NCBI RefSeq assembly: GCF_000008565.1
Contig: NC_000958.1
Coordinates: 60,001-92,000 of the forward strand
From: Deinococcus radiodurans R1 = ATCC 13939 = DSM 20539
Lineage (GTDB): Bacteria > Deinococcota > Deinococci > Deinococcales > Deinococcaceae
Direction of reading: 5' to 3'
Length of the DNA: 32,000 bases
Shown here: one piece after another, positions 6,275 through 28,734 of the stretch
How positions within the stretch are numbered: the stretch's first letter is position 1
Layout of the letters: each line of letters begins with the position of its first letter
Notes under the pieces: generated by a model
What the model was told of the DNA's origin: nothing
The model's database searches: none
Seen by the model: the letters and a program-made list of their open reading frames with translations, nothing else
Made by a program: the position numbers and the translations under genes

Positions 6275-6278
6275 GCTG

Positions 6279-9534: not shown

Positions 9535-9560
9535 GCCGGTCTGCGTGAGCCTGCTTCAGG

Positions 9561-9583
9561 CCCCCGGTCTTCAGGGCCGGGGG
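9561..9583 (+). terminator. GC-rich hairpin after the major pilin gene (possible attenuating terminator)
   Basis: CCCCCGG (9561-9567) pairs with CCGGGGG (9577-9583). The downstream T tract is weak, so efficiency is uncertain. Confidence 0.3.
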
Positions 9584-9642
9584 ATCTGCTTATCGGGCGC
9601 CCGCCAAGGTTCGGCTGAGATAATCTGAAGGGAGGCGACAGG

Positions 9643-10065: not shown

Positions 10066-10106
10066 CCTCTTCAGGACCTTCCCTCAAGCTCAAGGAAACC
10101 GAATCC

Positions 10107-13684: not shown

Positions 13685-16600
13685 TCAGGGCAGCGGTGCC
13701 AGAGCCACGCCGCGCAGGGCGGTATTGGCTTTCGCCGGGCTGAGCAGGGTGGGAGTGCCGCTCAGGGACTTCAAAAAGCCGGAAGTGTCGGTCAGTTTGA
13801 CCAGGCTGCCGGCATTGGTGGCCAGCAGCGTCACGGTATTGCCCTGCTGCACGCCAGCCAGCCCGATATAACTACCGCTGGCAACGCCCGAAGCCACCCA
13901 GGTTCCGTTTTGCAGACTGAATTTTTGCAGGCCGCTCGTGGCGTCGGCAATGTACAGGGTATCCGCACCGGGCAGGCCGTCCAGATCGGCCCAGAAAAAG
14001 CCGTAGCTGTCGCCGGTAACGCTGTCGGACAGACCCGGCAGGCGGCTGACGGTCTGGTTCCCGGTCGTGGGCAGGCCATTTCCTACGCTCAAGAGCCCTT
14101 TCGTGCCGTTGCCACTGCCACTCGACACGTACAGTTGATCGCCGAAGATGCCCAGTTGACGCAGGTTGGACGCGGCGCTGCTGATGCTGAGGCCGCTGCT
14201 GGCGCCCAGCGCGTAGAGCCGCACGCCGCTGTTGCCGCCAGTGACATAAAAACTGCGGCCATCTGTGCTGGCGGCGCTCCGGATATTGTCGCCACTGTAG
14301 GCGTCGGGAAGGGTCGTGGTGGTGTCCACAGTGCCGGCACTGTCCAGACGCCCGATCACGCGAGGTGTGGTCGCACTGTCGCTCGCCTTGACATTCGCCA
14401 GGCCGACGCTGGCCGCGTAGCCGGTCAATACCAGGTAATGAGCGTCCGCCGAGCGCGTCAGCATCCCTTCACTGCTGGCGGTGCCGCTGGCCAGGAGCGG
14501 CCTGTTGCTGCCACTGGTGCTGGTCGGCAGGCTCAGCGTCCGGACCAGCGACCCGTCGTTGGGATTGATGATGTCCACGAAAACGGGCGTGGCGGCGCTC
14601 GTCAGTTTGGCGCTGCCGTCCCCGACGCGGTACACCGCCACGTTGGGCAGGCTGGTCACGGGAGCGCTGACGGTCACGCCCGTGCTGGCGCTCACCGGGG
14701 CGCCGCTGCCGGGCGTGACCGTGGCTGTCAGGGTCACCGTGCCCGCCGCTTCCGCTCGCGCGACGCCGCGCTCGTCCACCGTCAGCTTGCTTGGGTCGCT
14801 GCTGCTCCAGCTGACGTTGACGGCGCAGTTGGGCGGTGACGTGGTGTAGATTGCCTTGAAGGTCTGGGTGCCGCCCACCGGCAGGGTGGAGTTGTCTGGG
14901 GTCACGCTCAGGTTGCTGACGGTGCAGGTCTGGGCCGGCAGGGCACCGACAATCACGGTCTCGGCGCGAAATTTCTGCCAGTCCTGCGCCGGGGCGACCA
15001 GGTCTTTGGCGATCTTGCCGTCACCGTAATACACGCTGTCGCCATTGTCGGTCAGCACCTGCACCGGCTGCCCGGTCAAGGCGTCGCTGTCGGGGTTGCC
15101 CGCAGGCATCGTAACGATGCTTTCCAGGCTGCCGTCCATGCTGGTGGCCAGGGCTTGCAGGTCATTGCGCAGATGCGCCGCGCCGTTGCTCTGGCCGTTC
15201 CACGAGTACAGCGCAAACGAGCTGCCCCCGCTGGCTGGCCCCGCCAGAATCAGGCAGCCCTGATCGTTGCACTTCAGCTCACGGATGCCGCGCCCGCCCA
15301 GGTCGAGTTGCACAGGAGCCCCGAAGGTGGCGGTGCGGGCCGTTCCCGTGACCAGCTCGGTGAAGTTGGTGACGGGAACGATCAACGCAGCGTTGCGCGT
15401 GCCGGACGGTTCCAGCGGCGCTCGGAATCCCAGGTAGGCCACGCTGCTGCCCGGTTTGAAGGCCAGACCTTCGATGTTGTACCCCACGCCGCCGTCGGCC
15501 TCAGGAATGACGCCACTGGCGGCGCTGGCCCCCAGTCCCAGGGCGTTGCCGTTGGCCCGGTCCCAGGCGAGCAGATCGTCGCGTAGATGATCGTAAGACC
15601 CCACGAAGTTCAGGGTGGCCGCCGCGCCCGAGCCCTGAAGGTCGGTCGCAAACACCCGGTTGCGATTGGGACGCGCCTTACCGCTCTTGCTGTTGCTTTG
15701 CGACCCCATCCAGAAAATCCGGTTGCCCAGCCGGGCGCTGGCTTCCAGGTCCATCTCGGGGTTGGCGGTGTCGGTCAGGTTCATCAGGGAACTGAAGTCG
15801 AACTGGGCCACCGGCGCACTGGACGTCGCCTGGGGATAAAGACTCAGCACATTGAACTCGTCGTCGGCCACCACCATGTACCCGTCGCCGACTTCCTGAG
15901 CGCTCGAAGCGTTGCTGGCCCCACTGAAAAAGCGGGTGCTAGACGTTGTGCCCGCCGCCTGACTCGCCGCGTAGTGCACCACGTAGCTGGCGGAGGCGCG
16001 GTCGCCGTCGGCAACGGTAACGGTGATATCGGCGTACCCGGTCTGCCGGGGGCTGATCTTGAGGAGACGGGTCTTTCCGCTGCCGCTGAGGGTGGCCGCC
16101 CCGACGCTGGGGTTGCTGCTGGTCGCGGTCACCGTCAGGCCCGCCGCGTCGGCGTCGCTGTCTGCCACCGTAAAGGTCAGGCCCTGGACACTGGCTGGAT
16201 CCGTCGGATCGCCGAGAGTGCCGCTGACATACGCGGGACTGCTCGCCGGCAACTTCACCTTCGAGTTGGCGCCGGGCGTCGGCGTCAGGGTCACCGGCAC
16301 GTCCACGCTGCCGACCGCCGTGAACACCACCGTGTAAAAGAACGGGTCGGTCGTGCCTGAGGTGGCCGGCATCTGCGTGGCAAAGGTCACGTCGGTGCTG
16401 GCGCCCGGGGCCAGAACGCCGCTGGTTTGCCAGCCGCTGGGGGAGAGGCCGCCCCTGCCCAGTTGCAAGCCCGCCGGGAGGGCGATGGTCTGTCCGGCGG
16501 TGTCGATGGGCTGATAAGGGGTGGCGGCTGTGTCCACCTGACCGCTCGCGTCACGCGCCTGCCCTGGCACCAGCGAGGCCGCCTGATCCGCGGCGTCTGA

Positions 16601-17071
16601 GCCGTCAAAATGCTTGACGTCCTTGAAATAGGTCGCGCCGACCGTAGGAGAGATGGTTGGCGTCGCGCCCGCCACCGCGTCGGTATCCAGGGGAACGAGT
16701 CCCAGATTGGTGATGGTCTGGGCCGACGTGTTCGTGACGTGGTAGGTCACGCGAACGAACCACTGTCCGTCCTGATGCAGCGTCCCCGAGGAGACGTAGC
16801 TGAAGGCCAGCTGGTTGTCCACCAAGCGGGTGGCCTGCGCGCTCAACTGGCCGGGCACCGAAATCGAGGACGTGACCGGGCCGCCCTGACCGTCGCGGCG
16901 GAATTGAAGTTCGTACAGTTGCCCCACCCGTGTTCTGGCCTGGGGAGCCGGACTGGCCGCTGAATGTTCCGGTTTGGCCGGCGAGCTGGGCAGTGGTTGT
17001 CCGCAGCCGGCCATCATCAGGCTGAGCATCAGGGGCAGGGCACACAGGGCGAGCTTCGGGGGTTTGGGCAT
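13685..17071 (-). CDS. Large multi-domain surface/secreted lipoprotein: shared N-terminal domain, phytase-like/beta-propeller-like region, Big_2 Ig-like domain and a C-terminal beta-propeller-like region
   Basis: I prefer the start at ATG 17071 (AAGGAG 8 nt upstream) over the track TTG at 17122. It has a lipobox, LSLMMAG/C. The N-terminal roughly 210 aa are paralogous to the N-termini of 18759-21962 and 22675-25335 (motifs PLDTD, F-K-x-V-x-H-F-D-G-S-D-A, DPFFYTVVFTAV). The Big_2-like segment is VSNLSVTPDNSTLPVGGTQTFKAIY...VTLTATV. Confidence 0.85.
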   Translation of the reverse strand: MPKPPKLALCALPLMLSLMMAGCGQPLPSSPAKPEHSAASPAPQARTRVGQLYELQFRRDGQGGPVTSSISVPGQLSAQATRLVDNQLAFSYVSSGTLHQDGQWFVRVTYHVTNTSAQTITNLGLVPLDTDAVAGATPTISPTVGATYFKDVKHFDGSDAADQAASLVPGQARDASGQVDTAATPYQPIDTAGQTIALPAGLQLGRGGLSPSGWQTSGVLAPGASTDVTFATQMPATSGTTDPFFYTVVFTAVGSVDVPVTLTPTPGANSKVKLPASSPAYVSGTLGDPTDPASVQGLTFTVADSDADAAGLTVTATSSNPSVGAATLSGSGKTRLLKISPRQTGYADITVTVADGDRASASYVVHYAASQAAGTTSSTRFFSGASNASSAQEVGDGYMVVADDEFNVLSLYPQATSSAPVAQFDFSSLMNLTDTANPEMDLEASARLGNRIFWMGSQSNSKSGKARPNRNRVFATDLQGSGAAATLNFVGSYDHLRDDLLAWDRANGNALGLGASAASGVIPEADGGVGYNIEGLAFKPGSSVAYLGFRAPLEPSGTRNAALIVPVTNFTELVTGTARTATFGAPVQLDLGGRGIRELKCNDQGCLILAGPASGGSSFALYSWNGQSNGAAHLRNDLQALATSMDGSLESIVTMPAGNPDSDALTGQPVQVLTDNGDSVYYGDGKIAKDLVAPAQDWQKFRAETVIVGALPAQTCTVSNLSVTPDNSTLPVGGTQTFKAIYTTSPPNCAVNVSWSSSDPSKLTVDERGVARAEAAGTVTLTATVTPGSGAPVSASTGVTVSAPVTSLPNVAVYRVGDGSAKLTSAATPVFVDIINPNDGSLVRTLSLPTSTSGSNRPLLASGTASSEGMLTRSADAHYLVLTGYAASVGLANVKASDSATTPRVIGRLDSAGTVDTTTTLPDAYSGDNIRSAASTDGRSFYVTGGNSGVRLYALGASSGLSISSAASNLRQLGIFGDQLYVSSGSGNGTKGLLSVGNGLPTTGNQTVSRLPGLSDSVTGDSYGFFWADLDGLPGADTLYIADATSGLQKFSLQNGTWVASGVASGSYIGLAGVQQGNTVTLLATNAGSLVKLTDTSGFLKSLSGTPTLLSPAKANTALRGVALAPLP

Positions 17072-17181: not shown

Positions 17182-18498
17182 TTATTCAGGCACCCGGAAG
17201 GACTCGGTAAACCGCTGACGCACCAGCGGCTCGCCGTAGCTCTCCATCACGCCGCGGTCGTCTTCGACCCAGGCGTGCCCCGTCAGGCCGGTCGGGGTCC
17301 GGGCCACGCCGCTGACGAATACGGCGGGGTGGCCGTAGCGGCGCAGTGCCCGGTAGGTTGCCGTCGCTCGCGGGACGCACACGCCGCGCCGGGACTGCCG
17401 GGGATAGAGCAGCCGCGTCCACCAGTTCACCGCGCCGATCAGGTCGTTCTGGGCACTCAGGCTGAGGCGGCCTGAGACCGGCTGGCCCCAGGGCCGCAGG
17501 GCCGCGCGGGGGTCTCCGCCCTGTCGTCCGACCCGGGCCGCCGCATACACGTCCGGCAGCAGCCGCAGCATCCAGACGGCGCGGCGGGGGGCGTTGCGGA
17601 GCCGGGCACGCCAGAGCAGAGCACGGTGGTCTCGTCCGTCGCGCCGCGCGGCGTCCAGGAGGACAGGCAAGCGACCCTGCAAGGCGCTCGCCAACTCCGG
17701 GCCAGCGGGCTGACAGACCCTGAGAAAGGCCGCCCAGGTCTGGCTGACCCCGAGTTCCTGCGCCCGCCGCGCCAGCGCCTCATCGGTCAACCGGTGCCGT
17801 TCGCGCAACACCTGCAAGTCAGGAACATCGGCGGGCTTCAGTCCCCCCGCGTCGCCCCCCCAGCAGCGGCTGACGGCCAGCGTCAGCACCGCGCGGTCGG
17901 CGGGGGAGGGGAGCAAGACAGGCACGCCGGCCCAATCGGTCGGCACCGCCGAGGCCCACATCTGCCGGGTGAGCGCCTGCATCCTTTCTTGCGGCCCTAC
18001 CTCCCAGGTCGTGACGAAGCGGTGAACGTCGAGCTTGGCCTGCCCACTCGGGCTCACGAGGTGCGCGCATTCATGCGTCCAGGTGGACGGACTGGCGTGC
18101 TGACCGTCACTGCGCCAGCCGTGGGCCAGCGCGAGGTGAACGGCGCGGCTGATGAGGTCGGGGTCATTCGGCAGCAGCAGGTCCAAGTCGCCGTAAAAGC
18201 GCTCGGCGGGGGTCGCGTAGTCGAATTCGGCCAGCGCGAAGCCCTTGAACAGCAGGGCCGGCACCCCGGCATCGGCCCAGAGCTGCAACAGGGGCCGGAC
18301 CTCGCTTTTGATGAGGGCGTGGCGCGCGGCGAGCTGCACGGCGTCCATTTTCAGCGCACCGCGCAGTGGGTGGCCCTGCGGCAAGCGCGGGCGGAGGTAC
18401 CCCCCCAGATGGAGCTGGCGCAGGGTGGGGAGGTCGTCCGCGGTGACCTCGCTGGGCGCAGCGAAGGTCCGTCGCAGCACTTCGGACAGGGAATCCAT
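17182..18498 (-). CDS. Fusion protein: NTP_transf_5 (uncharacterised nucleotidyltransferase) domain plus lasso-peptide B2-type transglutaminase-like cysteine protease domain
   Basis: The N-terminal part has AGVPALLFKGFALAEFDYATPAERFYGDLDLLLPNDPD, the K-G ... R ... D-x-D-L-L pattern of NTP_transf_5. The C-terminal roughly 90 aa, RRGVCVPRATATYRALRRYGHPAVFVSGVARTPTGLTGHAWVEDDRGV, shows the Cys ... His-A-W-V-E ... Asp pattern of B2 leader peptidases. The longest ORF reaches 18606, but its first codons overlap the RBS and start of the divergent peptide gene, so ATG 18498 (MDSLSEVLRR...) is preferred. Confidence 0.85.
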   Translation of the reverse strand: MDSLSEVLRRTFAAPSEVTADDLPTLRQLHLGGYLRPRLPQGHPLRGALKMDAVQLAARHALIKSEVRPLLQLWADAGVPALLFKGFALAEFDYATPAERFYGDLDLLLPNDPDLISRAVHLALAHGWRSDGQHASPSTWTHECAHLVSPSGQAKLDVHRFVTTWEVGPQERMQALTRQMWASAVPTDWAGVPVLLPSPADRAVLTLAVSRCWGGDAGGLKPADVPDLQVLRERHRLTDEALARRAQELGVSQTWAAFLRVCQPAGPELASALQGRLPVLLDAARRDGRDHRALLWRARLRNAPRRAVWMLRLLPDVYAAARVGRQGGDPRAALRPWGQPVSGRLSLSAQNDLIGAVNWWTRLLYPRQSRRGVCVPRATATYRALRRYGHPAVFVSGVARTPTGLTGHAWVEDDRGVMESYGEPLVRQRFTESFRVPE

Positions 18499-18604: not shown

Positions 18605-18769
18605 ATGTCAGAACATTGTCAGAAGACTGCTGTTAAGCCTGAACCCCGCCCCTACCAGGCCCCTGCCGTGCAGGACCTCGGCCCCTGGAAGGCCATGACC
18701 CTGATTTACAGCCTGCCCATCGGCCCCGGCGGCTCCCGTCCTACTGGTGGTAACAGCAATGTCTGGTAA
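18605..18769 (+). CDS. 54-aa precursor-like peptide with a lasso-type leader motif (paralogue 1)
   Basis: It is not in the ORF track because it is under 60 aa. The sequence is MSEHCQKTAVKPEPRPYQAPAVQDLGPWKAMTLIYSLPIGPGGSRPTGGNSNVW*. It has a strong RBS. A 27-residue block is shared with the peptide at 22448-22633, with many synonymous codon differences (Ser AGC vs TCT, Leu CTG vs TTG, Gly GGC vs GGT/GGG). The block fits Y-x2-P-x-[LIV]-x3-G-x5-T-x. Confidence 0.8.
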   Translation: MSEHCQKTAVKPEPRPYQAPAVQDLGPWKAMTLIYSLPIGPGGSRPTGGNSNVW

Positions 18770-21700
18770 GCGCGCCGCCAATGCCCTCTTGCTGGCTGGC
18801 CTTCTGGCCCTGAGTGCCTGCGGAAGCCAGCAGCCTGCGGGCACAGGCGCGGCGGTGCCTGCCCCAGGGCCCGTGACCAGCGGTACTTCCCGCAGCAGCC
18901 TCGGCGTGTACCAGCTCAGCCTCAGCGGGGCGGGCAGCGCCATCAAGCAGGCCAGCGTGCAGCGCTTGGGCGCTCAGGCGACTGAAGTGGGCGGCCTGAG
19001 CTTCAAGAGCAACAACTACGGCTACTACGTCGACAGCTCGAACAACACCCTGCGGATGTGGGCGACGTTCGACGTGACCAACACCAGTGACCAGCCCCTC
19101 GCCGCGCCGACCTTCATTCCGGTCGACACCGAAGGCGCGGGCGGGACCATCGGCACCACGGCGTTCAAGAACGTGCGCTACTTCGACGGCAGCGATGCTT
19201 CGAGCCGCGCGCCGCTGCTGGCCTTCGACTCGTCGAACGACCCCAAGACGGCGGTCAAGACTCAGCTGCTCCGTGACCTCGACAGCGGCAGCGTGCAGGT
19301 CAACCTGCCTGCGGGCCTGCAACTCGCCGGCACCTCGCACACCGGCTGGAAGATGGGCGCCCTGCCGGCGGGCGCGACCGGGCAGGTCACCCTCGCCGCG
19401 AGCATTCCAGCGGCCAGCAACTCTCAGGACAACCCCTTTTCGTTCGACCTGGTCTTCACCGTGGCCGACAACGTGCCCAGCACCACGCTGACCAACATCG
19501 GTGCGGTTCAGGGCCAGACCCCCGGCGGCGACCGGCCCGCAGCCTTGACCGGCGCGCAGACCATCGAAGGCGTCGTGACAGCGGTCGAGCCTGGTCTGAG
19601 CGGCTTTTTCGTGCAGGAAGAGGGCATCGACGCCGACAGGGACGAGACCACCAGCGACGGCCTGTTCGTCTACTGCGCGGCGAGTTGCCCGGCGCTCAGC
19701 GCGGGCGACCGCGTGCGGGTCAGCGGCACGGTGGCCGAATACGGCGGCGCCACCCAGATGACGGCGCCCACCGTGACCAAACTGCTTTCCGGCCTGGCGC
19801 TGCCGCCTGCCGCCGAGCTGAAGCTGCCGCTCGACAAGACGCAACAGGAGCGTTATGAGGGCATGCGCGTGCGCTTCCCCGAAACGCTGACCATCACCAA
19901 CAACTACACCTATGGCCGCTACGGGCAACTCGACCTATCGAACGCCGGGCGCATGTTCAATCCCACCAACGGGAACGCCAGCGCCAGCGAGCAGAGTACC
20001 ATCACACTCGATGACGGCGTCAGCGCACAAAACCCGCTGGACCTGAACTACCTCAGCGCCGAGCGGACCCGCCGCACGGGCGACACGGTCACCGGCCTGA
20101 GCGGCGTGTGGCATTCGGTTGCCAATCAGCCCATGCTGGAGCCGGAGGGAGCGGTCGAGTTCGTCTCCGCCAACAGCCGCGCCAGCAACGCCCTGCCGCA
20201 TGACGTCGGTGGCAGCCTGCGGGTGGGCGGTGCCAACGTCCTGAACTACTTCACGACTTACGGCGGCAGCACGGACCGCGGCGCAAACAACGCCGGTGAG
20301 CTGGCCCGGCAACGCGCCAAGATGGCGACCACGCTGACCACCCTGAACGCCGACGTGCTGTCGCTGATGGAAGTGCAGAACAATGGTGATACGGCGCTCA
20401 ACGACCTTGTCGCGGCGCTCAATGAGAAAGCCGGCGCCGGGACCTACGCCGCCGTGACGACGGGCTCCGTCGGTACCGACGCCATCAAAGTCGCCATCAT
20501 CTACAAGCCGTCTAAGGTCACGCCGGTCGGCCAGTTCATGACCGACAACAACTCTGTCTTCTCGCGCCCGCCCGTCGCCCAGACGTTCCGTGACAAGACC
20601 ACGGGCGGCGTCTTCAGCGTGATCGCCAACCACCTCAAGAGCAAAGGCAGCTGCCCCACGTCCGGCGACGTGGACACGGGCCAGGGCTGCTGGAATCAAC
20701 TGCGCGTGCGGCAGGCTCAGGCGCTGCTGGGCTTCGTCGATACCGTGAAGCAAAAAAGCGGCGACCAGGACGTCTTGCTGCTGGGGGATTTCAATGCCTA
20801 CGGCGCGGAAGACCCCATCAAAGTGCTGCAAGGCGGCGGATTCGAGAGCCTGAACCTGCGTATTCCCGCAGAAGACCGTTACAGCTACCAGTTCAATGGC
20901 CTGTTCGGTTACCTTGACCACGCGCTGGCGAGCCAGAACCTCAGCGCTCAAGTGAGCGGCATCACCGAGTGGCACGTCAACAGCGACGAGCCGGTTATCG
21001 CCGACTACAACACCGAGTTCAAGAAGGTTGCGGGCTGCACTGGAACCAACTGCACGGGCATCGATCTGTTCGACCCGACCAATCCCTTCCGCGCCAGCGA
21101 CCACGACCCGGTGCTTGTCGGCCTGAACCTGACCGCCGACGCAGGGACCACTCCCACTCCGGCACCGACCACGGCGCTGAGCGCCAACCCCAGCGCCCTG
21201 ACGGTGACGGCGGGCGGCGCAGCCGTGAGCAGCACCCTGACGACCAGCACCCAGAACTACAGTGGCGCCGACTTCACCGTCAGCACCCAGAACAGCGCGG
21301 GTCTGACGGTCGCGCCCTCGGCGACTTCGGTGAGCCCCAACGGGACGTTCACCGTGAGCGTCACGGCGCCTGCGGGCACGGCAGCCGGAACGTACCCGGT
21401 GACGGTGACGACCACAGGTGCAGGTGGCCTGACGGCGACTGCGACCCTCAACGTCACGGTGAGCGTAGGCGGTACTCCTCCCCCCAGCTCGACTGGCAGT
21501 GATCTGATTATCAGCGAGTACGTCGAAGGAACCAGTAATAACAAAGCATTGGAGTTCTACAATCCGACAGCAAACACTCTTGATTTGAGTGCTTATACGG
21601 TCGAACTGTATGCCAACGGCGCGACGAAGGCCACAAATACACAGAAGCTCACTGGGAGCCTGGCTCCTGGCGCTGTCTTGGTCCTGGTCAACGGTTCTGC

Positions 21701-21962
21701 TGTACCTGAGCTCAAAGCCAGGGGAACTGTCAGTAGTGTGACCAATTTCAATGGTGATGACGCCATTGTGCTGAAAAAGAGTGGCGTGGTCATCGATTCG
21801 TTTGGTCAGGTCGGGGTACAGAGCATGTGGGGCGCGGACGTTACTCTGCGCCGTAAGAGTGGCATCGTTTCAGGCGATAGCAACCCGAATGATCCCTTTA
21901 GCGCAGCGACCGAGTGGGACAGTTTTCCAGTTGACACTTTCGATGGACTTGGAAGCCGCTAA
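18759..21962 (+). CDS. ExeM/NucH-type extracellular nuclease lipoprotein (shared N-terminal domain, OB-like domain, endonuclease/exonuclease/phosphatase domain, Ig-like repeats, lamin-tail domain)
   Basis: It has a lipobox, LLALSA/C. The NucH-type segment is IEGVVTAVEPGLSGFFVQEEG...DGLFVY...GDRVRVSGTVAEYGGATQM. EEP motifs are GGANVLNYF, SLMEVQNN, LLGDFNAY, YLDHALAS and RASDHDPVLVGL. The C-terminal lamin-tail domain is DLIISEYVEGTSNNKALEFYNPT. The ATG at 18759 (track GTG 18747) overlaps the upstream peptide gene by 11 nt. Confidence 0.9.
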   Translation: MSGKRAANALLLAGLLALSACGSQQPAGTGAAVPAPGPVTSGTSRSSLGVYQLSLSGAGSAIKQASVQRLGAQATEVGGLSFKSNNYGYYVDSSNNTLRMWATFDVTNTSDQPLAAPTFIPVDTEGAGGTIGTTAFKNVRYFDGSDASSRAPLLAFDSSNDPKTAVKTQLLRDLDSGSVQVNLPAGLQLAGTSHTGWKMGALPAGATGQVTLAASIPAASNSQDNPFSFDLVFTVADNVPSTTLTNIGAVQGQTPGGDRPAALTGAQTIEGVVTAVEPGLSGFFVQEEGIDADRDETTSDGLFVYCAASCPALSAGDRVRVSGTVAEYGGATQMTAPTVTKLLSGLALPPAAELKLPLDKTQQERYEGMRVRFPETLTITNNYTYGRYGQLDLSNAGRMFNPTNGNASASEQSTITLDDGVSAQNPLDLNYLSAERTRRTGDTVTGLSGVWHSVANQPMLEPEGAVEFVSANSRASNALPHDVGGSLRVGGANVLNYFTTYGGSTDRGANNAGELARQRAKMATTLTTLNADVLSLMEVQNNGDTALNDLVAALNEKAGAGTYAAVTTGSVGTDAIKVAIIYKPSKVTPVGQFMTDNNSVFSRPPVAQTFRDKTTGGVFSVIANHLKSKGSCPTSGDVDTGQGCWNQLRVRQAQALLGFVDTVKQKSGDQDVLLLGDFNAYGAEDPIKVLQGGGFESLNLRIPAEDRYSYQFNGLFGYLDHALASQNLSAQVSGITEWHVNSDEPVIADYNTEFKKVAGCTGTNCTGIDLFDPTNPFRASDHDPVLVGLNLTADAGTTPTPAPTTALSANPSALTVTAGGAAVSSTLTTSTQNYSGADFTVSTQNSAGLTVAPSATSVSPNGTFTVSVTAPAGTAAGTYPVTVTTTGAGGLTATATLNVTVSVGGTPPPSSTGSDLIISEYVEGTSNNKALEFYNPTANTLDLSAYTVELYANGATKATNTQKLTGSLAPGAVLVLVNGSAVPELKARGTVSSVTNFNGDDAIVLKKSGVVIDSFGQVGVQSMWGADVTLRRKSGIVSGDSNPNDPFSAATEWDSFPVDTFDGLGSR

Positions 21963-21989
21963 AAACCAAAGTTGAGCTTGAAGGCTTGA

Positions 21990-22020
21990 GCTGCCCAGTC
22001 TTAGACCGGGCAGCTTTTTT
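21990..22020 (+). terminator. Rho-independent terminator after the nuclease gene
   Basis: GCTGCCC (21990-21996) pairs with GGGCAGC (22008-22014) across an 11-nt loop, followed by TTTTTT (22015-22020). Confidence 0.8.
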
Positions 22021-22447
22021 GCGTCCTTATAGTCCATCTCCTTGGCTTAACCTTTCCCTCCGGCCAGCCTTCTTTTCTCTGTTAGCCCCCAAACAGTCAA
22101 ATTGTTGGTGAGTTCAGCTTGAGAATGTCTAGACAAATACTTTTAAGAAACTTTTCTCATACGGCTGTCAGGATGCTGTGACAAATATCGTTTGGAAAGT
22201 GTTGGGTCTTCAGAAAACATACATGTAAACTTCTTGATAAAGTTCATCAATTTTACTCCTCAACTCTTTGCTTGGAAGTTACATCTATACACCCAGGCCA
22301 TTTATCTGTTCCCATTTTTCACATATAGTAAATAAGTCGGAAAATTTAATCGGCTTCTGTGCCCCGCGAAGGCGCAAAAAGCTTATCTGGCCTCGGCTTA
22401 CTGAGGAGGTCGGGTCTGTCTTTTTATTCCCGCAACTTGGATCAGTT

Positions 22448-22633
22448 ATGCAAATAAGTGAAGCTAAGCCGCAAGCAAACTTCTCAGAGGAAGCTGAGAA
22501 AACCAGTCTTGCCAGTAAGTACGAAGCCCCTCAAATAAAGGATCTGGGCAGCTGGAAAACCATGACCTTGCTTTACTCTCTCCCTATCGGCCCTGGTGGG
22601 AGAAGCACACATCAAGACGGCCCATTGTATTAA
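22448..22633 (+). CDS. 61-aa precursor-like peptide with a lasso-type leader motif (paralogue 2)
   Basis: The sequence is MQISEAKPQANFSEEAEKTSLASKYEAPQIKDLGSWKTMTLLYSLPIGPGGRSTHQDGPLY*. It is the in-frame ATG portion of track ORF 22268-22633. It shares the block Y-[QE]-A-P-x-[VI]-x-D-L-G-x-W-K-x-M-T-L-[IL]-Y-S-L-P-I-G-P-G-G with the peptide at 18605-18769. Its RBS is weak. Confidence 0.7.
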   Translation: MQISEAKPQANFSEEAEKTSLASKYEAPQIKDLGSWKTMTLLYSLPIGPGGRSTHQDGPLY

Positions 22634-22674
22634 AAACCGTTCATCTTACAAGTTGTGATGTTTCGAGGATATAA

Positions 22675-25335
22675 ATGAAAGTGTCCAGATCTTTAGTTCT
22701 TTTGGGTCTTCTGACGTTGGCTGCCTGCGGTTCTACCCCTGGCAACACTTCTCCCCAGCCTTCGCCGATCGTAGCTCCTGCAAGGCAGTTACAGAGCTTT
22801 GGATTGTATGAATTGAGTGTCAATGGCGCTACGACTGCGGCGCCTGAGAGCAGAATTTTCAGGACTGGTCTGAGCTCTCAAACTAACGATATTCAAGGGC
22901 TTAAATTTACTCCTTTGTCGACGGGAACATACACCGATGAGTTGAGCCGCACACGTTATTTGCGCGCTTCGTTTAAGGTGAGTAACGAAACTGGACAACC
23001 CTTAACGGTTCCCACCTATGTCCCTGTCGATACGGATGGAAACGACGCTACTGTGGGGGCAACTCCATTTAAAGCGGTGCAGTACTTTGACGGGAGCGAT
23101 GCCAGCTCAAGAGCCTTAGAATTGCAGCTGGATACAGCACATCGGTTTAATAGTGCTACTGGCGCCAATGAAATAGATCTGGACGCTACCCCCCTAGTGA
23201 CCAAGCTTGATACCCGTGATCTGGTCATAAACCCGCCGCCTGGGACCACAATCGCACAGGTCTTTCATCAGGGCTGGCAAGGGCGACAGTTGGCTCCTGG
23301 AGGAACCCAGGTCGTCACTTTCGCTGCCCGACTGCCTATGGCTGCTGATTCAAAGCTAGATCCCTTTAGATTTAAGCTGATGTTTGCAGTGACAGATAAT
23401 CCTGCGCCTTTGCCTGATGATCAGATAGCACCAACAGTATCACTGACATTAGATCCCATCGAGTTGACGTCGGCAGGCTCCGTCACTTTTCGCGCCGCCG
23501 CTGAAGACAATGTCGGCATCCGGGACGTTACTTTTTATGATGGTGACAAACTCCTAGGGACTGTTACCGAGGCGCCTTATGAGTGGAAGTCCGCTTATAC
23601 AGCTGCCGATAACGGAGAGCACGTCATTCGTGCGGTTGCTACGGACACCAGTGGAAATACCGCGCAAACGACCAGTAGACTAAATATTAAAATCTCTACA
23701 GCAAATGTTCCATTTATTGGGAGTGGCCCGGCTGGTTTGATGGTCGATCTGATTCGTTCGAACCGTGGCGAAGGAGTCAGCGATTCTACAGTTCGTATCT
23801 ATCATAGTGGTGATCGCACAAAGGTGTTGGCTGAGACTCAAACTGATAAGAGTGGTTTTACTCAATTTCTGAATATTCCAGAAGGAACCTACGACTTAGT
23901 TTTCAGTAAAGCTAATGCGGCAGGTTCGGAATTTAATGGTGCAGTTGCAAAAGCGGGCGTCAATCAACGCCTCAAGATTGCCCAGTTTGATGCTCAGAAC
24001 CCTACAGCCGGGAAAGCAACGGCCAAGCTGGCTGTCCTGACGCCTACTGCCCTTGCTGCGGATGGAACTGCTGTGGATTGGAAAGTGCTGACTCCCGGCA
24101 CTGTAATGAACAACGATATTCAACTGAGGGCTTACACAACCGCTGAAAACCCAGCTCCACTTCAGCTCAAGTACCTGATGTTTTCGGTCGTGAATTTCGA
24201 TGCCACTGGGCAGATGACCGAACTGCGCAGTGCGCTGGCCAGTATTGATGCTGGCAAAGTGAATCCGGGCATGGAAAGTCAGGACAGCGGTCTGATGACG
24301 CTCGACACAGCCGGGCTTCAAGGCGATATTTATGTACAGGTCTCTTCGCTGGATTTTAATAACAACCGTTCGGCTTATTTGATCCCGGTTCGCCTTGAGC
24401 GGAGCAGTGCGCCCGGTGCTGTGACAGCGCCCACTGGAGTAAGCGCTATCGCCTATACCAACGGTGAACGCATCAACTACATTTATGGAGTCACTGACCC
24501 CAGCACTCAAGGAGAAGGTAAAAATATTTTCCCGGACACGAACAGCTGGGTGAGCGTGTCCTGGGATATGCCGAGTACCACTGCTGGCTTGACTGGCTTC
24601 CGCGTTCTGCGCGCGGTGGCGCCGCAAGGTCCATACAGTGAAGTGGCGTTTGCTGGTGTAGCGCAGTGCCGCACTTCGACCAAGCGTTGCACGGCCAGCG
24701 ATAATACTGCCACTCTGCAAGTCGGTCAGGACTATTACTACCGGGTTAAAGCTATCGGAAGTAACGAAGCCTTGAGTGCTACGCCATCACAGGCCAGCAC
24801 GCGGATTTTGCCTCCGTTTAAGCCACAGCTCCTCAGTCCGGGTTCGGAGCAGACGGATGTCAGTCTCCTCCCTGAGTACACGTTTAAGACCAATGCTTTT
24901 GAGGGTGGCGCCACGGGGCTGCGCTTTGATCTGCGCGTCAGCGACGCTTTTACTTCCGTCGGCAATACGGACGCGCCGCCCCTGCGCATTGTGGGCCAGG
25001 GCGGGACCTTCAAGGTGATCGGCGCCGATAACGACACCCGGGATTACGCCAAGTGGGTAACCTATGACGTGGCGAGTGACGTGGTCAAAGTCCCTCACGA
25101 CCTCACCCGGGTGCGCTCTGGCCTGGCGCCACAGCCGCTCCAGACGAATCGGCGGTACTCGTGGATGCTTCACCGCGCTTATACCTACCGTCTCCTTGAT
25201 CCAACTTTGCCGGAATCGACCACCAACCCTGTCGTGGCTTACTCGGTGTATAGCGACCCGGACACCACCAAGATTGTTCCCGGCGGCGTCACGCAGAGTG
25301 TCAGCACTGTCTACCACTTCATTACCCGGCCCTGA
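22675..25335 (+). CDS. 886-aa multi-domain lipoprotein (shared N-terminal domain, bacterial Ig-like domain, carboxypeptidase-regulatory-like domain, FN3-like domain, unknown C-terminal region)
   Basis: It has a lipobox, LLTLAA/C, and a GAGGA Shine-Dalgarno. Its N-terminal domain is paralogous to the other two lipoproteins (PVDTDG, F-K-A-V-Q-Y-F-D-G-S-D-A-S-S-R-A, DPFRFKLMFAVTDN). The Ig-like segment is APTVSLTLDP...AAAEDNVGIRDVTFYDGDKLLGT...PYEW...VIRAVATDTSGNT. Confidence 0.85.
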   Translation: MKVSRSLVLLGLLTLAACGSTPGNTSPQPSPIVAPARQLQSFGLYELSVNGATTAAPESRIFRTGLSSQTNDIQGLKFTPLSTGTYTDELSRTRYLRASFKVSNETGQPLTVPTYVPVDTDGNDATVGATPFKAVQYFDGSDASSRALELQLDTAHRFNSATGANEIDLDATPLVTKLDTRDLVINPPPGTTIAQVFHQGWQGRQLAPGGTQVVTFAARLPMAADSKLDPFRFKLMFAVTDNPAPLPDDQIAPTVSLTLDPIELTSAGSVTFRAAAEDNVGIRDVTFYDGDKLLGTVTEAPYEWKSAYTAADNGEHVIRAVATDTSGNTAQTTSRLNIKISTANVPFIGSGPAGLMVDLIRSNRGEGVSDSTVRIYHSGDRTKVLAETQTDKSGFTQFLNIPEGTYDLVFSKANAAGSEFNGAVAKAGVNQRLKIAQFDAQNPTAGKATAKLAVLTPTALAADGTAVDWKVLTPGTVMNNDIQLRAYTTAENPAPLQLKYLMFSVVNFDATGQMTELRSALASIDAGKVNPGMESQDSGLMTLDTAGLQGDIYVQVSSLDFNNNRSAYLIPVRLERSSAPGAVTAPTGVSAIAYTNGERINYIYGVTDPSTQGEGKNIFPDTNSWVSVSWDMPSTTAGLTGFRVLRAVAPQGPYSEVAFAGVAQCRTSTKRCTASDNTATLQVGQDYYYRVKAIGSNEALSATPSQASTRILPPFKPQLLSPGSEQTDVSLLPEYTFKTNAFEGGATGLRFDLRVSDAFTSVGNTDAPPLRIVGQGGTFKVIGADNDTRDYAKWVTYDVASDVVKVPHDLTRVRSGLAPQPLQTNRRYSWMLHRAYTYRLLDPTLPESTTNPVVAYSVYSDPDTTKIVPGGVTQSVSTVYHFITRP

Positions 25336-25352
25336 ATCCAAGGAGCATTTCT

Positions 25353-27587
25353 ATGAAAAGACTTTCTCTCGCGGCGCTCAGTCTTACTGTTCTTCTGGCG
25401 GCTTGCCAGCAGCAGAGCACCGTTGTCAATCCCCGCCCACCAGTGACCTCTTCACCGATGCAGGCCGGTGGCATTCCTACCCCTGACATTGATCCAGCGC
25501 GCATTATCCTCGACCCAAACAGCGGGGCCCAGTATGTCAGCGATCAATTGGTCGTCGGCCTGGGCGGGCTGGACTCCACAACCCTGGCAGCCCAGCTGGG
25601 GGCGACCGTCATAGACCGTTTGCCGCAGCTTGACGCTGTGGTGCTTCACCTCAGTGATGGAAGTGCTTTGCAAAAAGCCAGGCAGCTCAATGAAGAAGGC
25701 CGTGTCACGTTCGCAGCTCCCCAGCAAATTATGCAGATGGAACCCTATACGAAAAGTATTCGGGAGCCTGCATTATCGCCGCTGGCGGTCAATCAAGTGT
25801 TCGACGCTCTGCCGCAGTACGCATTGGATAGCGAGCATCTCAATGCCAAAGCAGCCTGGGACGCCGGCTTTACGGGACGTGGCGTGACTGTCGGAGTGAT
25901 TGACGATCCTGTTGATGTTTCACACCCTGACTTGCGAGCCAACTGGGCTGGGAAAGCGTACGATCCGAAGGCCGACAAGACCTATACGACAGTGCAAAGT
26001 TGGCTTGATGCGATTGATGCTTTCGGTTCAGTGCCGATGCCTGTAGACAATCAGGTGGACGAGAACATTGAGCACGGTACTGCCGTCACCTCCACTATCG
26101 CTGCCGCTCGTGATGGGCGAGGGGTCGTTGGAGTGGCGCCGGATGCCAAGTACCTCACGGCGGCCATGTTTCAGCCGGGGAGCGTCGGCTCTGCTGGTGT
26201 GGCGAAGGCCATCTTATGGATGGTAGATAATGGAGCAAAAGTCCTGAACAATTCCTGGGGCGGCGCTGGCTTTGACCCCCTGATCAAGGCTGCAATGGAC
26301 TACGCTCTGGAACGAAACGTCACTGTGGTAGTTTCCGCTGGCAATGAATCGCGTGAATATTATCAGCGGCCAGCGCTTTTTGCGGGGGTTATTCCTTCTG
26401 CGGCCCTGGCTGTCAATAATACTAAAGCGAGTTTCTCTTCTTTCGGGCGCCATATCAGTGTGGCTGCGCCTGGGACAGACATCCTCATGGCCTCACCGCT
26501 GTTCATTAATGACGATGGAACACGCAAATTGGGTGCCACTCCTCCAGATGGCAGTGGCTACGTCCTGATGAGTGGAACTTCCTTCTCTGGACCTTATACG
26601 GCAGCTACGGCAGCTCTGATTCTAGGTGCCCACCCAGAGCTCGACCCCTATCAAGTGCGGCGGCTGATGGAAGAGACGGCTGACGGAAGCGTCGGCGAAA
26701 ACCCCAATGGTTTTGACCGGGGGACAGGGTATGGCCGCATTCAACTGGGAGAACTGGCTCAACGTCTCCAAAGCGGTCCTATGCCGGCAAAAGGCGGCGC
26801 CCTTAAGGTACTGGTGCAATTTAAGAAAAGCGACGGCACCTTCGTGACTCAGACCCAGCCTTCAGACGTGATTATTGAAAAAGACGGTGAAAATGGGGCG
26901 ATTTACGGGGCGCAGACCAATGCCAAAGGTTTGGTCCAGTTCGCGGCGATGGCGCCTGGAACCTATACTCTTCGGGTGGGTGGCCCTGATCTGAAGGCTG
27001 ACACAGCGCTAAAGGAGCGAGGCAGTTATACGGGCAAAGTCACTATCACGTCCGGTACGACGTTGGCTGACGCCGAACCGATCGTGGTGACACTGGATAA
27101 AGGGTTCTATGAGCCCCCACCTCCTGTGGTCGATCCCTATGAGCCGAACGACAGTCTTGAAACGGCAACTCAAATTTCGATTGGTATGCGCACGCAGCCG
27201 GCGCTCATTTATAGGGAGAGCTGCTCTTCTTCCTGTACGCCAGTCAATGGAGATGTCGACTTTTACAAATTCAGCGGTACTGCTGGGCAAACTGTAGAAG
27301 TGGCTCTCTTTGATAAATATCACCCCACCGAAAAGATAGGCAATATGTGGGGAGTAATATACATTCGTGATTCAACCGGCAATCTTCTTAAGGATTCCGC
27401 TGGGAAAGTCATCCAACCGGGAATCGTTGACAACAAATTTACAGCTAAGCTGCCTACAGATGGGACCTACTATTTACAGGCTGGAACCTATCTCCATCTG
27501 AATCCGACCCAGGGAGAAAAGCCTTACACAGGAGGCTTTACAAATAGTAAGGATAACAAATATTTTATAGAACTGAAACTCAAATGA
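25353..27587 (+). CDS. S8 (subtilisin-family) serine protease lipoprotein with C-terminal PPC (pre-peptidase C-terminal) domain
   Basis: It has a lipobox, VLLAA/C, and an AAGGAG Shine-Dalgarno. Catalytic motifs are VGVIDDPVD (Asp), EHGTAVTSTIAA (His), NNSWGG and MSGTSFSGPYTAATAALIL (Ser). The PPC-like tail is YEPNDSLETAT...GDVDFYKFSGTAGQTVEV. Confidence 0.9.
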   Translation: MKRLSLAALSLTVLLAACQQQSTVVNPRPPVTSSPMQAGGIPTPDIDPARIILDPNSGAQYVSDQLVVGLGGLDSTTLAAQLGATVIDRLPQLDAVVLHLSDGSALQKARQLNEEGRVTFAAPQQIMQMEPYTKSIREPALSPLAVNQVFDALPQYALDSEHLNAKAAWDAGFTGRGVTVGVIDDPVDVSHPDLRANWAGKAYDPKADKTYTTVQSWLDAIDAFGSVPMPVDNQVDENIEHGTAVTSTIAAARDGRGVVGVAPDAKYLTAAMFQPGSVGSAGVAKAILWMVDNGAKVLNNSWGGAGFDPLIKAAMDYALERNVTVVVSAGNESREYYQRPALFAGVIPSAALAVNNTKASFSSFGRHISVAAPGTDILMASPLFINDDGTRKLGATPPDGSGYVLMSGTSFSGPYTAATAALILGAHPELDPYQVRRLMEETADGSVGENPNGFDRGTGYGRIQLGELAQRLQSGPMPAKGGALKVLVQFKKSDGTFVTQTQPSDVIIEKDGENGAIYGAQTNAKGLVQFAAMAPGTYTLRVGGPDLKADTALKERGSYTGKVTITSGTTLADAEPIVVTLDKGFYEPPPPVVDPYEPNDSLETATQISIGMRTQPALIYRESCSSSCTPVNGDVDFYKFSGTAGQTVEVALFDKYHPTEKIGNMWGVIYIRDSTGNLLKDSAGKVIQPGIVDNKFTAKLPTDGTYYLQAGTYLHLNPTQGEKPYTGGFTNSKDNKYFIELKLK

Positions 27588-27602
27588 CTTGAAAAATAAT
27601 AC

Positions 27603-27640
27603 AGCTGGTTGAACCTAAAAGTTCAACCAGCTTGTTTTTT
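27603..27640. terminator. Strong hairpin between convergent genes (bidirectional terminator candidate)
   Basis: AGCTGGTTGAAC (27603-27614) pairs with GTTCAACCAGCT (27621-27632) across a 6-nt loop. It is followed by TGTTTTTT (to 27640) and preceded by an A-rich tract. It overlaps the last codons of the minus-strand kinase gene. Confidence 0.75.
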
Positions 27641-28486
27641 AAGTAGCATTTCCTCTGTTTGCTCTATAACTTTTTCCCGCGTCGTTCCCTGCACGGTCAG
27701 TCGGCGCAGCAGCTCATTTACCGCCTGAGCGCTGGCCTGCCGGGTGCGCGCCAGCAGCGGCACGCCAGTGCATTCCCAAAGTGCCTGTACGCTGTCCGCT
27801 CGTGAAGGGTGGTGCGGCAGGCCAAAAACGAGCAGGGTGTCTAGAGTCGCAGGCGTCGTTGGTGGCGTGAGGGGCACCATCCATTTGCCGTAGGCGTCTT
27901 GCCCCTGCGCGGCGGCCCGGAGCCCCGGAGCGAAGCGGTCCAGACTGTCCGGGTAGGTTCGCAGGAAGCGGTCGAGTCCCAGCACCCGTCCTGACCCGGC
28001 GTGCACCCAGGTCTGGTCCTCGGCAAGCACGCTCAGGCCCGCTGCCGCCAGCCGCAGGGCCGCCGTGCTTTTGCCCGCGCCGCTTACGCCCGTGATGCCT
28101 ACCGCCCTACTTTCTCGCGCCACCGTCGCGGCGTGCAGGGGCAGCCAGCCGCTCAGGCGCTGCAACTCGGCCAGGGCCAGCAGCCAGGCAGCTTCAGAGG
28201 GAGCAGCCAGATGGACCGTCAGGCGCGGCGCGGCGGCGAGTTGCAAATGTAAGTGGTTCCCCAGCCACAGCTCGTCTCCCTGTGCCCAGATGTCGAGGAC
28301 TGTGTTGGAAACCATGATCTGCTGGGCGGGCACGTCCGGTTGGGGCGGTAACTCCCCAGGAAAACACATCACTTTGAGGGGCGTGTCCACCAGAGACACC
28401 GTTTGCCAGCGCTCCTGCAACTGCCGCTCCAGTTCAGTGGGTAAGCGTGCAGTCTCTAAGTCCAGCCCCAGCGAAAGCCAGGTCAC
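27623..28486 (-). CDS. HPr-kinase-like (HprK C-terminal domain-related) P-loop kinase of the kind found in lasso/RiPP clusters
   Basis: 287 aa with the Walker A segment GITGVSGAGKSTAALRLAAAGLSVLAEDQTWV. Its GTG start overlaps the stop of the upstream PqqD-like gene (GTGA), which suggests translational coupling. Confidence 0.8.
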   Translation of the reverse strand: MTWLSLGLDLETARLPTELERQLQERWQTVSLVDTPLKVMCFPGELPPQPDVPAQQIMVSNTVLDIWAQGDELWLGNHLHLQLAAAPRLTVHLAAPSEAAWLLALAELQRLSGWLPLHAATVARESRAVGITGVSGAGKSTAALRLAAAGLSVLAEDQTWVHAGSGRVLGLDRFLRTYPDSLDRFAPGLRAAAQGQDAYGKWMVPLTPPTTPATLDTLLVFGLPHHPSRADSVQALWECTGVPLLARTRQASAQAVNELLRRLTVQGTTREKVIEQTEEMLLKKQAG

Positions 28487-28734
28487 GACGGCTGCACGAG
28501 GCCGCGCTCGGCCAGAGCCGCCATCAAGCTCTGCACGTCGCGCAGGGCGTCTGCCGGCGCGAGGTCATAGGTGCGGGCCAGCAGCTCGCCCAGGGCCGTC
28601 TCGTCGGCGGGCAACGCGTTCCAGAGCAGTCTGCCGGTTTCGTTCAGGCTGAACATCACGCTGCGCACCGGCTCCATCAAAACGAGTTCGTCGCCGAGGT
28701 CGGTGGTCAGGACAGCCGAGTTGGGTTCCCACAT
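28483..28734 (-). CDS. PqqD-family protein (lasso B1 / RiPP recognition element)
   Basis: 83 aa: ...LGDELVLMEPVRSVMFSLNETGRLLWNALPADETALGELLARTYDLAPADALRDVQSLMAALAERGLV. This is the typical PqqD pattern (x-L-N-x-T-G ... W ... L ... D-V ... F/L ... L ... G-L). Confidence 0.85.
   Translation of the reverse strand: MWEPNSAVLTTDLGDELVLMEPVRSVMFSLNETGRLLWNALPADETALGELLARTYDLAPADALRDVQSLMAALAERGLVQPS

Follow-up and report, generated by a model that had tools for sequence, protein, structure and literature searches.

What is encoded directly upstream of the lipoprotein gene DR_B0068 on megaplasmid MP1 of Deinococcus radiodurans R1? The window analyzed here (32,000 nucleotides [nt] of MP1; all positions below refer to it) contains at this place an open reading frame (ORF) of 121 codons, 22268 to 22633 on the plus strand, which starts with TTG and has its sole in-frame ATG at 22448. 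An earlier interpretation made from the letters alone (the sequence-only reading) had taken only the last 61 codons as genuine. It had seen in them a second precursor-like peptide, similar to the one encoded at 18605 to 18769, of the kind that gives rise to ribosomally synthesized peptides with posttranslational modifications (RiPPs). We find that 22448 to 22633 is a genuine 61-codon gene, unannotated in the MP1 records examined, and call it pep2; the gene for the paralogous peptide is called pep1. We consider it rather likely that pep2 encodes the second of two precursors of a cyclase-less, lasso-type RiPP-like system on MP1, the product of which would be linear, modified at Ser3 and tied to lipoproteins.

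A 61-codon gene upstream of DR_B0068

A hidden Markov model (HMM) of the peptide family covers residues 61 to 116 of the 121-amino-acid (aa) ORF (E = 5e-19), and BLASTP with the pep1 peptide aligns only residues 72 to 111 (24 of 43 positions identical; E = 4e-16), which bears out the proposed kinship of the two peptides. Close relatives (nine clusters) are 54 to 72 aa long throughout. The JGI, ENA and Logan pipelines called exactly this 61-aa product on 66 contigs; the 121-aa product, in contrast, is present in none of the protein collections searched. Upstream of the ATG, the frame stays open for 6 to 89 codons among ten loci, with sequences that are unrelated between loci. The extension (22268 to 22447, plus strand), which starts from TTG and forms the AT-rich 5′ region of the ORF, is thus not conserved in the relatives and is spurious, as had been concluded from its non-ATG start and its lack of similarity to pep1. 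For the 26-codon conserved block, comparison with the relatives gave uncorrected proportions of synonymous differences (pS) of 0.38 to 0.79, near saturation, and of nonsynonymous differences (pN) of 0.05 to 0.25. In line with the BLASTP, HMM and pS/pN data, the gene runs on the plus strand from ATG 22448 to the TAA at 22631 to 22633 and encodes MQISEAKPQANFSEEAEKTSLASKYEAPQIKDLGSWKTMTL followed by the predicted core LYSLPIGPGGRSTHQDGPLY.

The 12 kb around pep2 are 100% identical to MP1 of D. radiodurans R1 and of other strains, and a near-identical copy of pep2 is known that is two substitutions apart, both in the leader. No feature is annotated at pep2 in any of 14 MP1 records, judged by their gene tables, which by design are not complete. 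When the region from −40 to +6 was compared among 10 loci, AGGAG was present 6 to 9 nt 5′ of the ATG in every relative, and pep2 keeps at this site only GGAT (22439 to 22442, plus strand), a degenerate remnant of a Shine-Dalgarno (SD) sequence.

Past the stop codon of DR_B0067, a terminator-like hairpin (AGCTGCCC...GGGCAGCT followed by TTTTT; 21989 to 22020, plus strand) was read by eye; its 11-nt loop is the reason why the consensus terminator scan missed it. Scanning 21900 to 22750 against Rfam and for promoters and terminators yielded nothing significant. There is weak evidence for a promoter-like site at 22318 to 22345, and most likely 22268 to 22447 holds the promoter and the 5′ untranslated region of pep2. 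The hairpin implies that pep2 starts a transcription unit of its own. The GC content is 0.45 to 0.58 across 22000 to 27600, in contrast to 0.65 to 0.70 in the flanks; together with the hairpin, this low-GC island suggests that pep2, DR_B0068 and DR_B0069 were acquired separately, as one unit. The island seems inserted between DR_B0067 and the kinase/PqqD gene pair described below, and this pair is inverted in comparison to the related loci L001 and L002 (related loci are designated by L numbers).

Leader motif, predicted core and candidate maturation enzymes

Lasso peptide leaders are numbered with Tyr(−17), Pro(−14), Leu(−12) and Thr(−2), positions used by the lasso B1 and B2 proteins; the motif from −17 to −12 has a role in B1 binding (PMC10368454). 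In the pep2 peptide, the spacing Y25-x2-P28-x-I30-x3-G34-x5-T40-L41 is present as previously described. With a leader that ends at Leu41, Tyr25, Pro28, Ile30 and Thr40 fall at positions −17, −14, −12 and −2. By sequence and family statistics, Y25-E-A-P28-Q-I30 (22520 to 22537, plus strand) is therefore the leader recognition motif, and pep2 shows the YxxPxL at −17 to −12 and the Thr at −2 of a lasso leader. Thr40-Leu41 (22565 to 22570, plus strand) corresponds to Thr(−2)-Leu(−1), and both family statistics and the enzymology of lasso B2 proteases point to a predicted cleavage after Leu41, that is, after 22570.

The predicted core (22571 to 22630, plus strand; placed by family statistics) has at its position 3 Ser44 (22577 to 22579), and position 3 is the sole near-invariant hydroxyl residue of the family. 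The predicted phospho-core sequences of the D. radiodurans peptides are LYS(P)LPIGPGGRSTHQDGPLY and IYS(P)LPIGPGGSRPTGGNSNVW. What distinguishes lasso cores is lacking: position 1 of the pep2 core is not Gly, Ala, Ser or Cys, there is no Asp or Glu at positions 7 to 9, and the pep1 core contains zero acidic residues.

To describe the family, a profile was built from eleven close peptides and searched against 1.84 billion representative proteins (E ≤ 1e-3). The search returned 203 peptide clusters, and the best 150 of the 203 are nearly all 47 to 95 aa long. Residues were counted over those 145 of 152 retrieved small members that fit [YWF]xxPx[LVI]x3GxWx3[T]L. Position −17 is Tyr, Trp or Phe, position −12 is Leu, Val or Ile, and position −1 is Leu in 145/145 each. 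Thr at −2 and Ser or Thr at core position 3 were each found in 144/145, Pro at core position 5 in 133/145 and Pro at core position 8 in 122/145. Conversely, Asp or Glu is present at core positions 7 to 9 in 5/145, and Gly, Ala, Ser or Cys at core position 1 in 9/145. The cores range from 8 to 48 aa. Many metagenomic members (those of L023, L032, L034, L035, L043, L045, L047, L051 and others) stop after ...ALTLQQS[VI]PIFP and have a predicted core of 8 residues. The variable, G/N/P-rich tail of the Deinococcus peptides is thus dispensable, and what is constrained is the leader motif together with xx[ST][VIL]P[IV]. The pep2 peptide itself conforms to the strict family pattern [YWF]xxPx[LVI]x3GxWx3TL-xx[ST][VIL]Px.. 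The sequence-only reading had described the leader part and the C-terminal tail as divergent, the usual pattern of RiPP precursors. This holds for the variable tail, but the conserved block is not just a matter of the leader, as it extends about nine residues into the predicted core.

Searches of Pfam-A and NCBIfam (E ≤ 10) gave no match for pep1, pep2 and six relatives; a single family member, P0053, had a sub-threshold match to NF033521 lasso_leader_L3 (12.6 bits against a cut-off of 19). Scans of viral contigs for the peptide were negative. A profile scan of genome contigs detected one locus, in a Deinococcus metagenome-assembled genome (MAG) identical to L001, and missed the source genome itself, so that it has little value for the distribution. 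Neither the peptide family nor the absence of a cyclase nor the lipoprotein link was found described in curated libraries or in the searchable literature. Judged by profile and motif, the peptides are a large undescribed family with a lasso-type leader.

The enzymes that would match such a leader are encoded in the same window. The minus-strand gene at 17182 to 18498, named "lasso peptide biosynthesis B2 protein" in RefSeq, encodes a nucleotidyltransferase (NTase) domain (PF14907; 82.5 bits) fused to a lasso B2 protease domain (PF13471 and NF033537, both above cut-off). The protease-motif Cys (GVCVPRA) and His (GHAWVE) are both present, and this NTase-B2 gene is conserved in 9/21 long loci. 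On the other side of pep2, a putative HprK-like/ScmC-like P-loop kinase of 287 aa is encoded at 27623 to 28486 (minus strand). Its motifs LPLHA, GxSGxGKST and AED are invariant across 9 kinase homologues, and it weakly matches the HprK P-loop region. The kinase gene overlaps by 4 nt the gene of an 83-aa protein (28483 to 28734, minus strand), a B1-like RiPP recognition element (RRE) of the PqqD family (PqqD in RefSeq). This protein has weak matches to the lasso_PqqD models, and the solved proteins most closely related to it are two lasso B1 proteins, TfuB1 and TbiB1. As in lasso clusters, a B1-like RRE and a B2 protease are thus encoded near the precursor. The leader motif at canonical distances and the matching enzymes agree with the earlier proposal that pep2 is the second copy of a RiPP-precursor-like peptide gene.

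The 474-aa NTase-B2 frame of the ORF caller starts at 18606 and overlaps the ATG of pep1 in a CATG palindrome, and the RefSeq start is 18498 (Met37). The RefSeq start leaves a divergent promoter region of 106 nt common to the NTase-B2 gene and pep1, which would place the published binding region of the quorum-sensing regulator DqsR "upstream of DR_B0067" at or before pep1. In strain BND-54 (L015, NZ_CP050122, 583 to 1897) the NTase-B2 gene is annotated as three coding sequences, and a second strain (CP094464) has a DR_B0065 homologue cut down to 227 aa; the cause may be either errors of sequencing or a system that is decaying in some strains.

Neither an Asn-synthetase-like lasso cyclase nor an ABC exporter was found in the 32-kb window, and no ORF with the PP-loop motif SGGxDS was detected in 487 kb of related loci around 49 distinct peptides. 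A Pfam scan of 64 large neighbors gave no Asn_synthase among the best 25 of 67 families listed, and among these only FG-GAP repeats were common to more than one neighbor. BLAST clustering of all neighbors revealed only five conserved components, namely the peptide, the lipoprotein domain, NTase-B2, the kinase and PqqD. The lack of both a cyclase and ring-forming residues argues for a linear product rather than a lasso.

Peptide and lipoprotein genes as a unit

The gap between the pep2 stop codon and the ATG of DR_B0068 at 22675 is 41 nt, as reported in the sequence-only reading. DR_B0068 (22675 to 25335, plus strand) encodes an 886-aa lipoprotein with the signal LLTLAACGS, a novel N-terminal domain (about 22774 to 23409; residues 34 to 245, approximately), Big_7, a CarboxypepD_reg-like region and a DRA0282-family C-terminal part; according to the literature and the RefSeq table, it is a paralogue of DR_A0281/0282. 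The third gene of this low-GC module, DR_B0069 (25353 to 27587, plus strand), encodes an S8 subtilase lipoprotein similar to DR_A0283. The 54-aa paralogue, pep1 (18605 to 18769, plus strand; WP_166466122.1, "hypothetical protein"), precedes DR_B0067 (18759 to 21962, plus strand), a 1,071-aa ExeM/NucH extracellular nuclease lipoprotein with the shared N-terminal domain and a C-terminal LTD. A third lipoprotein with this domain and with Big_2 and DUF3616 C-terminal parts is encoded directly downstream of the NTase-B2 gene (59 to 110 nt; 13685 to 17071, minus strand); no separate peptide gene accompanies it.

That these lipoproteins share an N-terminal domain could be verified for the three in the window and six relatives. 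The domain comprises about 210 aa after the lipobox, with 35 to 64% identity among Deinococcus proteins, and DR_B0068 matches the domain HMM with E = 2e-92. Homology is still recognizable in distant lineages (RFDGS..., DQFDGxVTFA...DPF...FLAVDD). The domain has no match in Pfam, NCBIfam or PHROGs. A confident AlphaFold2 model of the DR_B0068 domain is all-beta (pLDDT 92, pTM 0.89), with the domain described as a beta-sandwich, and Foldseek searches with this model against PDB and BFVD gave no convincing match. The C-terminal parts to which the domain is fused are diverse: nuclease plus LTD, Big_7/DRA0282, Big_2/DUF3616, IPT/TIG and, by RefSeq name, beta-helix.

HMMs were built for the five components and mapped on all loci. 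The loci contain 49 distinct peptides, and for 41 of these the sequence continues for at least 900 nt downstream. Right after the peptide gene, the domain-lipoprotein gene starts in 34 of the 41, including loci of distant high-GC metagenomic lineages; the pairing seen in the sequence-only reading is thus borne out. Among the exceptions are loci with the domain gene directly upstream (L043, L047) and loci with the NTase-B2 gene directly downstream (L041, L051). The last codons of pep1 (AAT GTC TGG TAA) overlap the start of DR_B0067 (ATG TCT GGT AAG; 18759 to 18769), and such a stop/start overlap was found in five type-1 loci (the window, L011, L013, L002 and L001). The overlap suggests translational coupling and would constrain the C-terminal residues of the peptide (NVW, NVF, YEW). 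Furthermore, the peptide subtype tracks the lipoprotein subtype, and L036 carries a tandem duplicated peptide-lipoprotein pair. A peptide-lipoprotein-S8 module like that of pep2 is also present in L006, with a differently sequenced peptide and a good SD sequence.

The Deinococcus MAG and three metagenome contigs show the order NTase-B2 (minus strand) and then PqqD, kinase, peptide and ExeM nuclease. In D. psychrotolerans, kinase and PqqD are followed by peptide, nuclease and B2, and in the distant metagenomic contig L019, peptide, two lipoproteins and NTase-B2 are followed by kinase and PqqD. The enzyme trio is encoded within 10 kb of the peptide in about 40% of the long loci and presumably occupies another genomic site in the others. 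A metagenome scan with the QQS subfamily added 35 further loci. The search for conserved upstream regulators revealed nothing general; its yield was a single BTAD/TPR protein and a single ECF-sigma/kinase pair.

Where the predicted core starts, its sequence (TL[IL]Y[ST]L in Deinococcus, TLQQS[VI] in other members) is similar to the first beta-strand of the adjacent domain (LG[LV]Y[QE]L and LG[LV]VE[VI], respectively), possibly by coincidence; 22565 to 22590 was compared with 22786 to 22815, as were 33 peptide-lipoprotein pairs. The idea of a mimicry of this strand by the core was set aside, as the resemblance mostly tracks clade and L057 and L059 are counter-examples.

On D. gobiensis plasmid P1 (L056, 8941 to 14105) and D. 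ficus pDFI2 (L058, 1428 to 7016), the peptide gene is followed by genes for a small domain protein and a domain protein of about 900 aa, the latter annotated as right-handed beta-helix repeat in D. gobiensis and as hypothetical in D. ficus, and then by two to three "tail fiber protein" genes. Similarly, L019 encodes a YadA_head/Peptidase_S74 protein. No maturation enzymes were found in the flanks of L056 and L058 examined (about 9 kb, less in L058). The context of L016 (3639 to 10455) and L017 (10001 to 10624) is prophage-like. There the domain is part of a 352-aa lipoprotein encoded just 5′ of the tape-measure gene, a second domain copy is truncated by an insertion sequence (IS), and no peptide gene is near either copy.

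Proposed pathway and competing explanations

In the pathway we propose, the PqqD protein would bind the leader via Tyr(−17), Pro(−14) and Ile(−12), and the HprK-like kinase would phosphorylate core Ser3 (Ser44). The NTase domain of the 17182 to 18498 protein may extend the phosphate, for example with a hexose, and the fused B2 cysteine-protease domain would cut after Thr40-Leu41. The expected product is a short linear peptide, LYSLPIGPGG... with its Ser modified, and not a lasso. Since the peptide gene and the domain-lipoprotein gene stay together as a unit (pep1 with DR_B0067, pep2 with DR_B0068), the peptide most likely has its function on, or together with, the N-terminal domain of the lipoprotein, as its ligand, partner or maturation factor. 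There are precedents for the two modification steps. The HprK-like BsfK of a lasso cluster phosphorylates Ser3 of the precursor core in a B1-dependent manner, after which B2 removes the leader (PMC10368454). In the pseudomycoidin pathway, PsmN, a PF14907 nucleotidyltransferase of the type often fused to B2, adds hexose to phospho-Ser (PMC8498205).

The system shares much with these phospho- and phosphoglycosylated lasso pathways (paeninodin PadeK; Bradymonas BsfK/BsfB1/BsfB2; pseudomycoidin PsmK/PsmN). The leader motif matches (Tyr(−17), Pro(−14), Leu(−12) and the residue at −2), B1 (PqqD) and B2 are split, a putative HprK-like kinase is encoded, PF14907 is fused to B2, and Ser3 of the core is placed as in the BsfK substrate. 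The C-terminal residue of the pep2 peptide is Tyr and not the Ser acceptor of the Pade/Psm type, so that only the Bsf-type acceptor, core Ser3 (Ser44), is present. Unlike those pathways, the system lacks a lasso cyclase and an ABC exporter, and its cores are without Gly1 and Asp/Glu at 7 to 9 and are as short as 8 aa. It also has invariants of its own (Gly(−7)/Trp(−5), Leu(−1), Pro(+5), Pro(+8)) and the link to a lipoprotein domain, which to our knowledge has not been reported for lasso clusters.

Several observations weigh against this pathway. The HMM scores of the kinase (31 to 33 bits against a cut-off of 200) and of PqqD are far below the curated cut-offs. Some copies of the domain stand without a peptide gene (DR_B0065, second copies in some loci such as the second lipoprotein of L019, and the prophage-borne P0016), which makes a strict 1:1 subunit model unlikely. 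The ribosome-binding site of pep2 is degenerate (GGAT), and tryptic peptides of pep1 and pep2 are missing from the supplementary tables of one D. radiodurans small-ORF proteomics study. The neighbor Pfam negative rests on the best 25 of 67 families, and the cyclase negatives span the window and the 487 kb of related loci, which does not directly exclude a cyclase elsewhere in the genome. Neither the neighbor Pfam families listed nor the BLAST clustering contained an exporter conserved near the system. Moreover, the lipoprotein signal peptides look Sec-type and not Tat-type, which speaks against a folded complex being exported jointly. With no exporter conserved nearby, the route of a cytoplasmically matured peptide to an exported, apparently Sec-dependent lipoprotein is the weakest link of the proposal.

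These points bear differently on the alternatives. The peptide could function as a small protein that stays unmodified, or its gene could be a coupling ORF upstream of the lipoprotein gene; its role would be that of a regulator, a chaperone or a means of translational coupling of the lipoprotein; it might bind PqqD unmatured and, for example, activate or titrate the B2 and kinase enzymes toward another substrate. The tight coupling of the two genes up to stop/start overlap, the lack of an exporter, the location of the enzymes beyond 10 kb in about half of the long loci and the extension of the conserved block across the supposed cleavage site all favor this explanation. However, lasso-type B2 and kinase enzymes act at exactly those positions where the family has its invariant Thr(−2)-Leu(−1) and its Ser/Thr at +3, peptide and enzymes occur together in lineages that are very distant, and the amino acid conservation exceeds the needs of coupling; we regard this explanation as unlikely. 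Quite unlikely, too, is that only pep1 is functional and that pep2 is a silent or decaying passenger of the low-GC DR_B0068/DR_B0069 island. The GC drop at 22000 to 27600 indeed marks an acquired island, the SD sequence has decayed to GGAT in comparison to AGGAG in all relatives, and pep2 is both unannotated in the MP1 gene tables and missing from the proteomics supplements. Yet its ORF is intact with every family-invariant residue kept, the near-identical copy differs by two leader substitutions only, and the homologous L006 module has a good SD sequence. In Deinococcus, moreover, weak or absent SD sequences are often tolerated.

The other two explanations fare worse. A true lasso precursor, with the cyclase and perhaps the exporter encoded elsewhere in the genome, would be in line with the perfect leader motif, the adjacent B1 and B2 homologues and the RefSeq name "lasso peptide biosynthesis B2 protein" of the neighbor, and the cyclase search covered only the window of the D. 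radiodurans genome. It is very improbable nevertheless: LYSLPIGPGGRSTHQDGPLY has no Gly, Ala, Ser or Cys at position 1 and no Asp or Glu at positions 7 to 9, the pep1 core is without an acidic residue, just 5 of the 145 counted members have Asp or Glu at these positions, some cores are 8 aa long, and zero PP-loop proteins are encoded in the 487 kb around the 49 distinct peptides. Judged by its residues, the core composition virtually precludes a lasso made with a distant cyclase. Finally, that the whole 121-aa ORF (22268 to 22633) is the gene is hardly credible. The frame is open and TTG is a permitted start, but the extension lacks a homologue and is replaced in relatives by 6 to 89 codons of unrelated sequence, the HMM and BLAST matches are confined to residues 61 to 116 and 72 to 111, respectively, the protein collections contain the 61-aa form only, and the AT-rich region carries promoter-like and hairpin elements. 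We reject this reading, which would have refuted the 61-codon interpretation.

The proposed pathway toward a linear, modified peptide can also be compared to systems outside the phosphorylated lasso peptides. As in the canonical lasso systems TbiA/TbiB1 and TfuA/TfuB1, from which the nearest solved relatives of PqqD come, the logic would be that of leader recognition by an RRE. Unlike there, a macrolactam or threaded topology cannot be expected to form, as cyclase and acceptor residue are lacking. Cassettes of PqqD, HprK-like kinase and nucleotidyltransferase (TIGRFAM HprK-related kinase A/B; SynChlorMet ScmC/ScmD) are similar in that the proteins weakly match TIGR04352, TIGR04355, TIGR04249 and TIGR04248 and that Pfam ScmC matches kinase homologues, but the scores are far below the cut-offs and the proteins are not members. 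We know of no precursor peptide assigned to these cassettes. The QhpC gamma subunit of quinohemoprotein amine dehydrogenase and PQQ are familiar cases in which leader- or PqqD-dependent enzymes mature a small ribosomal peptide in the cytoplasm and in which this peptide is encoded beside the exported protein that uses it. Here, this is an analogy only: the system differs in having neither a radical-SAM enzyme nor a dedicated exporter, and its client proteins share only their N-terminal domain, with unrelated C-terminal enzymes and adhesin-like parts.

The RefSeq labels of the B2 and PqqD genes were already known; the peptide family, the absence of a cyclase and the lipoprotein link appear to be new. 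Probably, the annotated "lasso" B2 and PqqD genes are better explained by a cyclase-less family with lasso-type leaders (203 clusters), and no lasso is made. It is possible, though tentative, that the system represents a new RiPP class, in which lasso machinery was repurposed without cyclization to produce a linear phospho(glyco)peptide as the dedicated ligand or maturation factor of a lipoprotein domain. In any case, a missing gene is added to the heavily studied D. radiodurans R1, beside the stress-biology proteins DR_B0067 and DR_B0068, a paralogue of the DNA-binding DR_A0282. If the proposal is true, it provides a natural case in which leader-dependent lasso enzymes do without the step that defines the class, and a rare RiPP the likely client of which, the lipoprotein domain, is suggested by gene order. 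Under the tentative reading as a new class, the domain of surface lipoproteins (nucleases, adhesin-like beta-helices and Ig-domain proteins) would be part of a peptide-plus-lipoprotein module in at least 200 lineages that controls how exoproteins are displayed or how active they are, in D. radiodurans including the DR_B0067 nuclease and the DR_A0282 paralogue DR_B0068. The predicted chemistry of pep2, +80 Da on Ser44 and cleavage after Leu41, can be checked by mass spectrometry, and D. radiodurans is genetically tractable.

Three other regions of the window are briefly described. Beside the PqqD gene, a 112-aa ORF at 28825 to 29166 (minus strand) matches only the C-terminal quarter of FAD-dependent monooxygenases; it is probably what remains of a gene at the boundary of a rearrangement. 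At 4248 to 8919, an IS cluster contains an HTH plus DDE_3 gene and three DDE_Tnp_1 transposase genes; 6120 to 7454 and 7669 to 8919 have the same domain composition. Three co-oriented genes at 9058 to 13005 weakly match PapD_N (E = 2e-5) and Usher (E = 7e-5) and would be chaperone-usher-like, which is unusual for Deinococcus.

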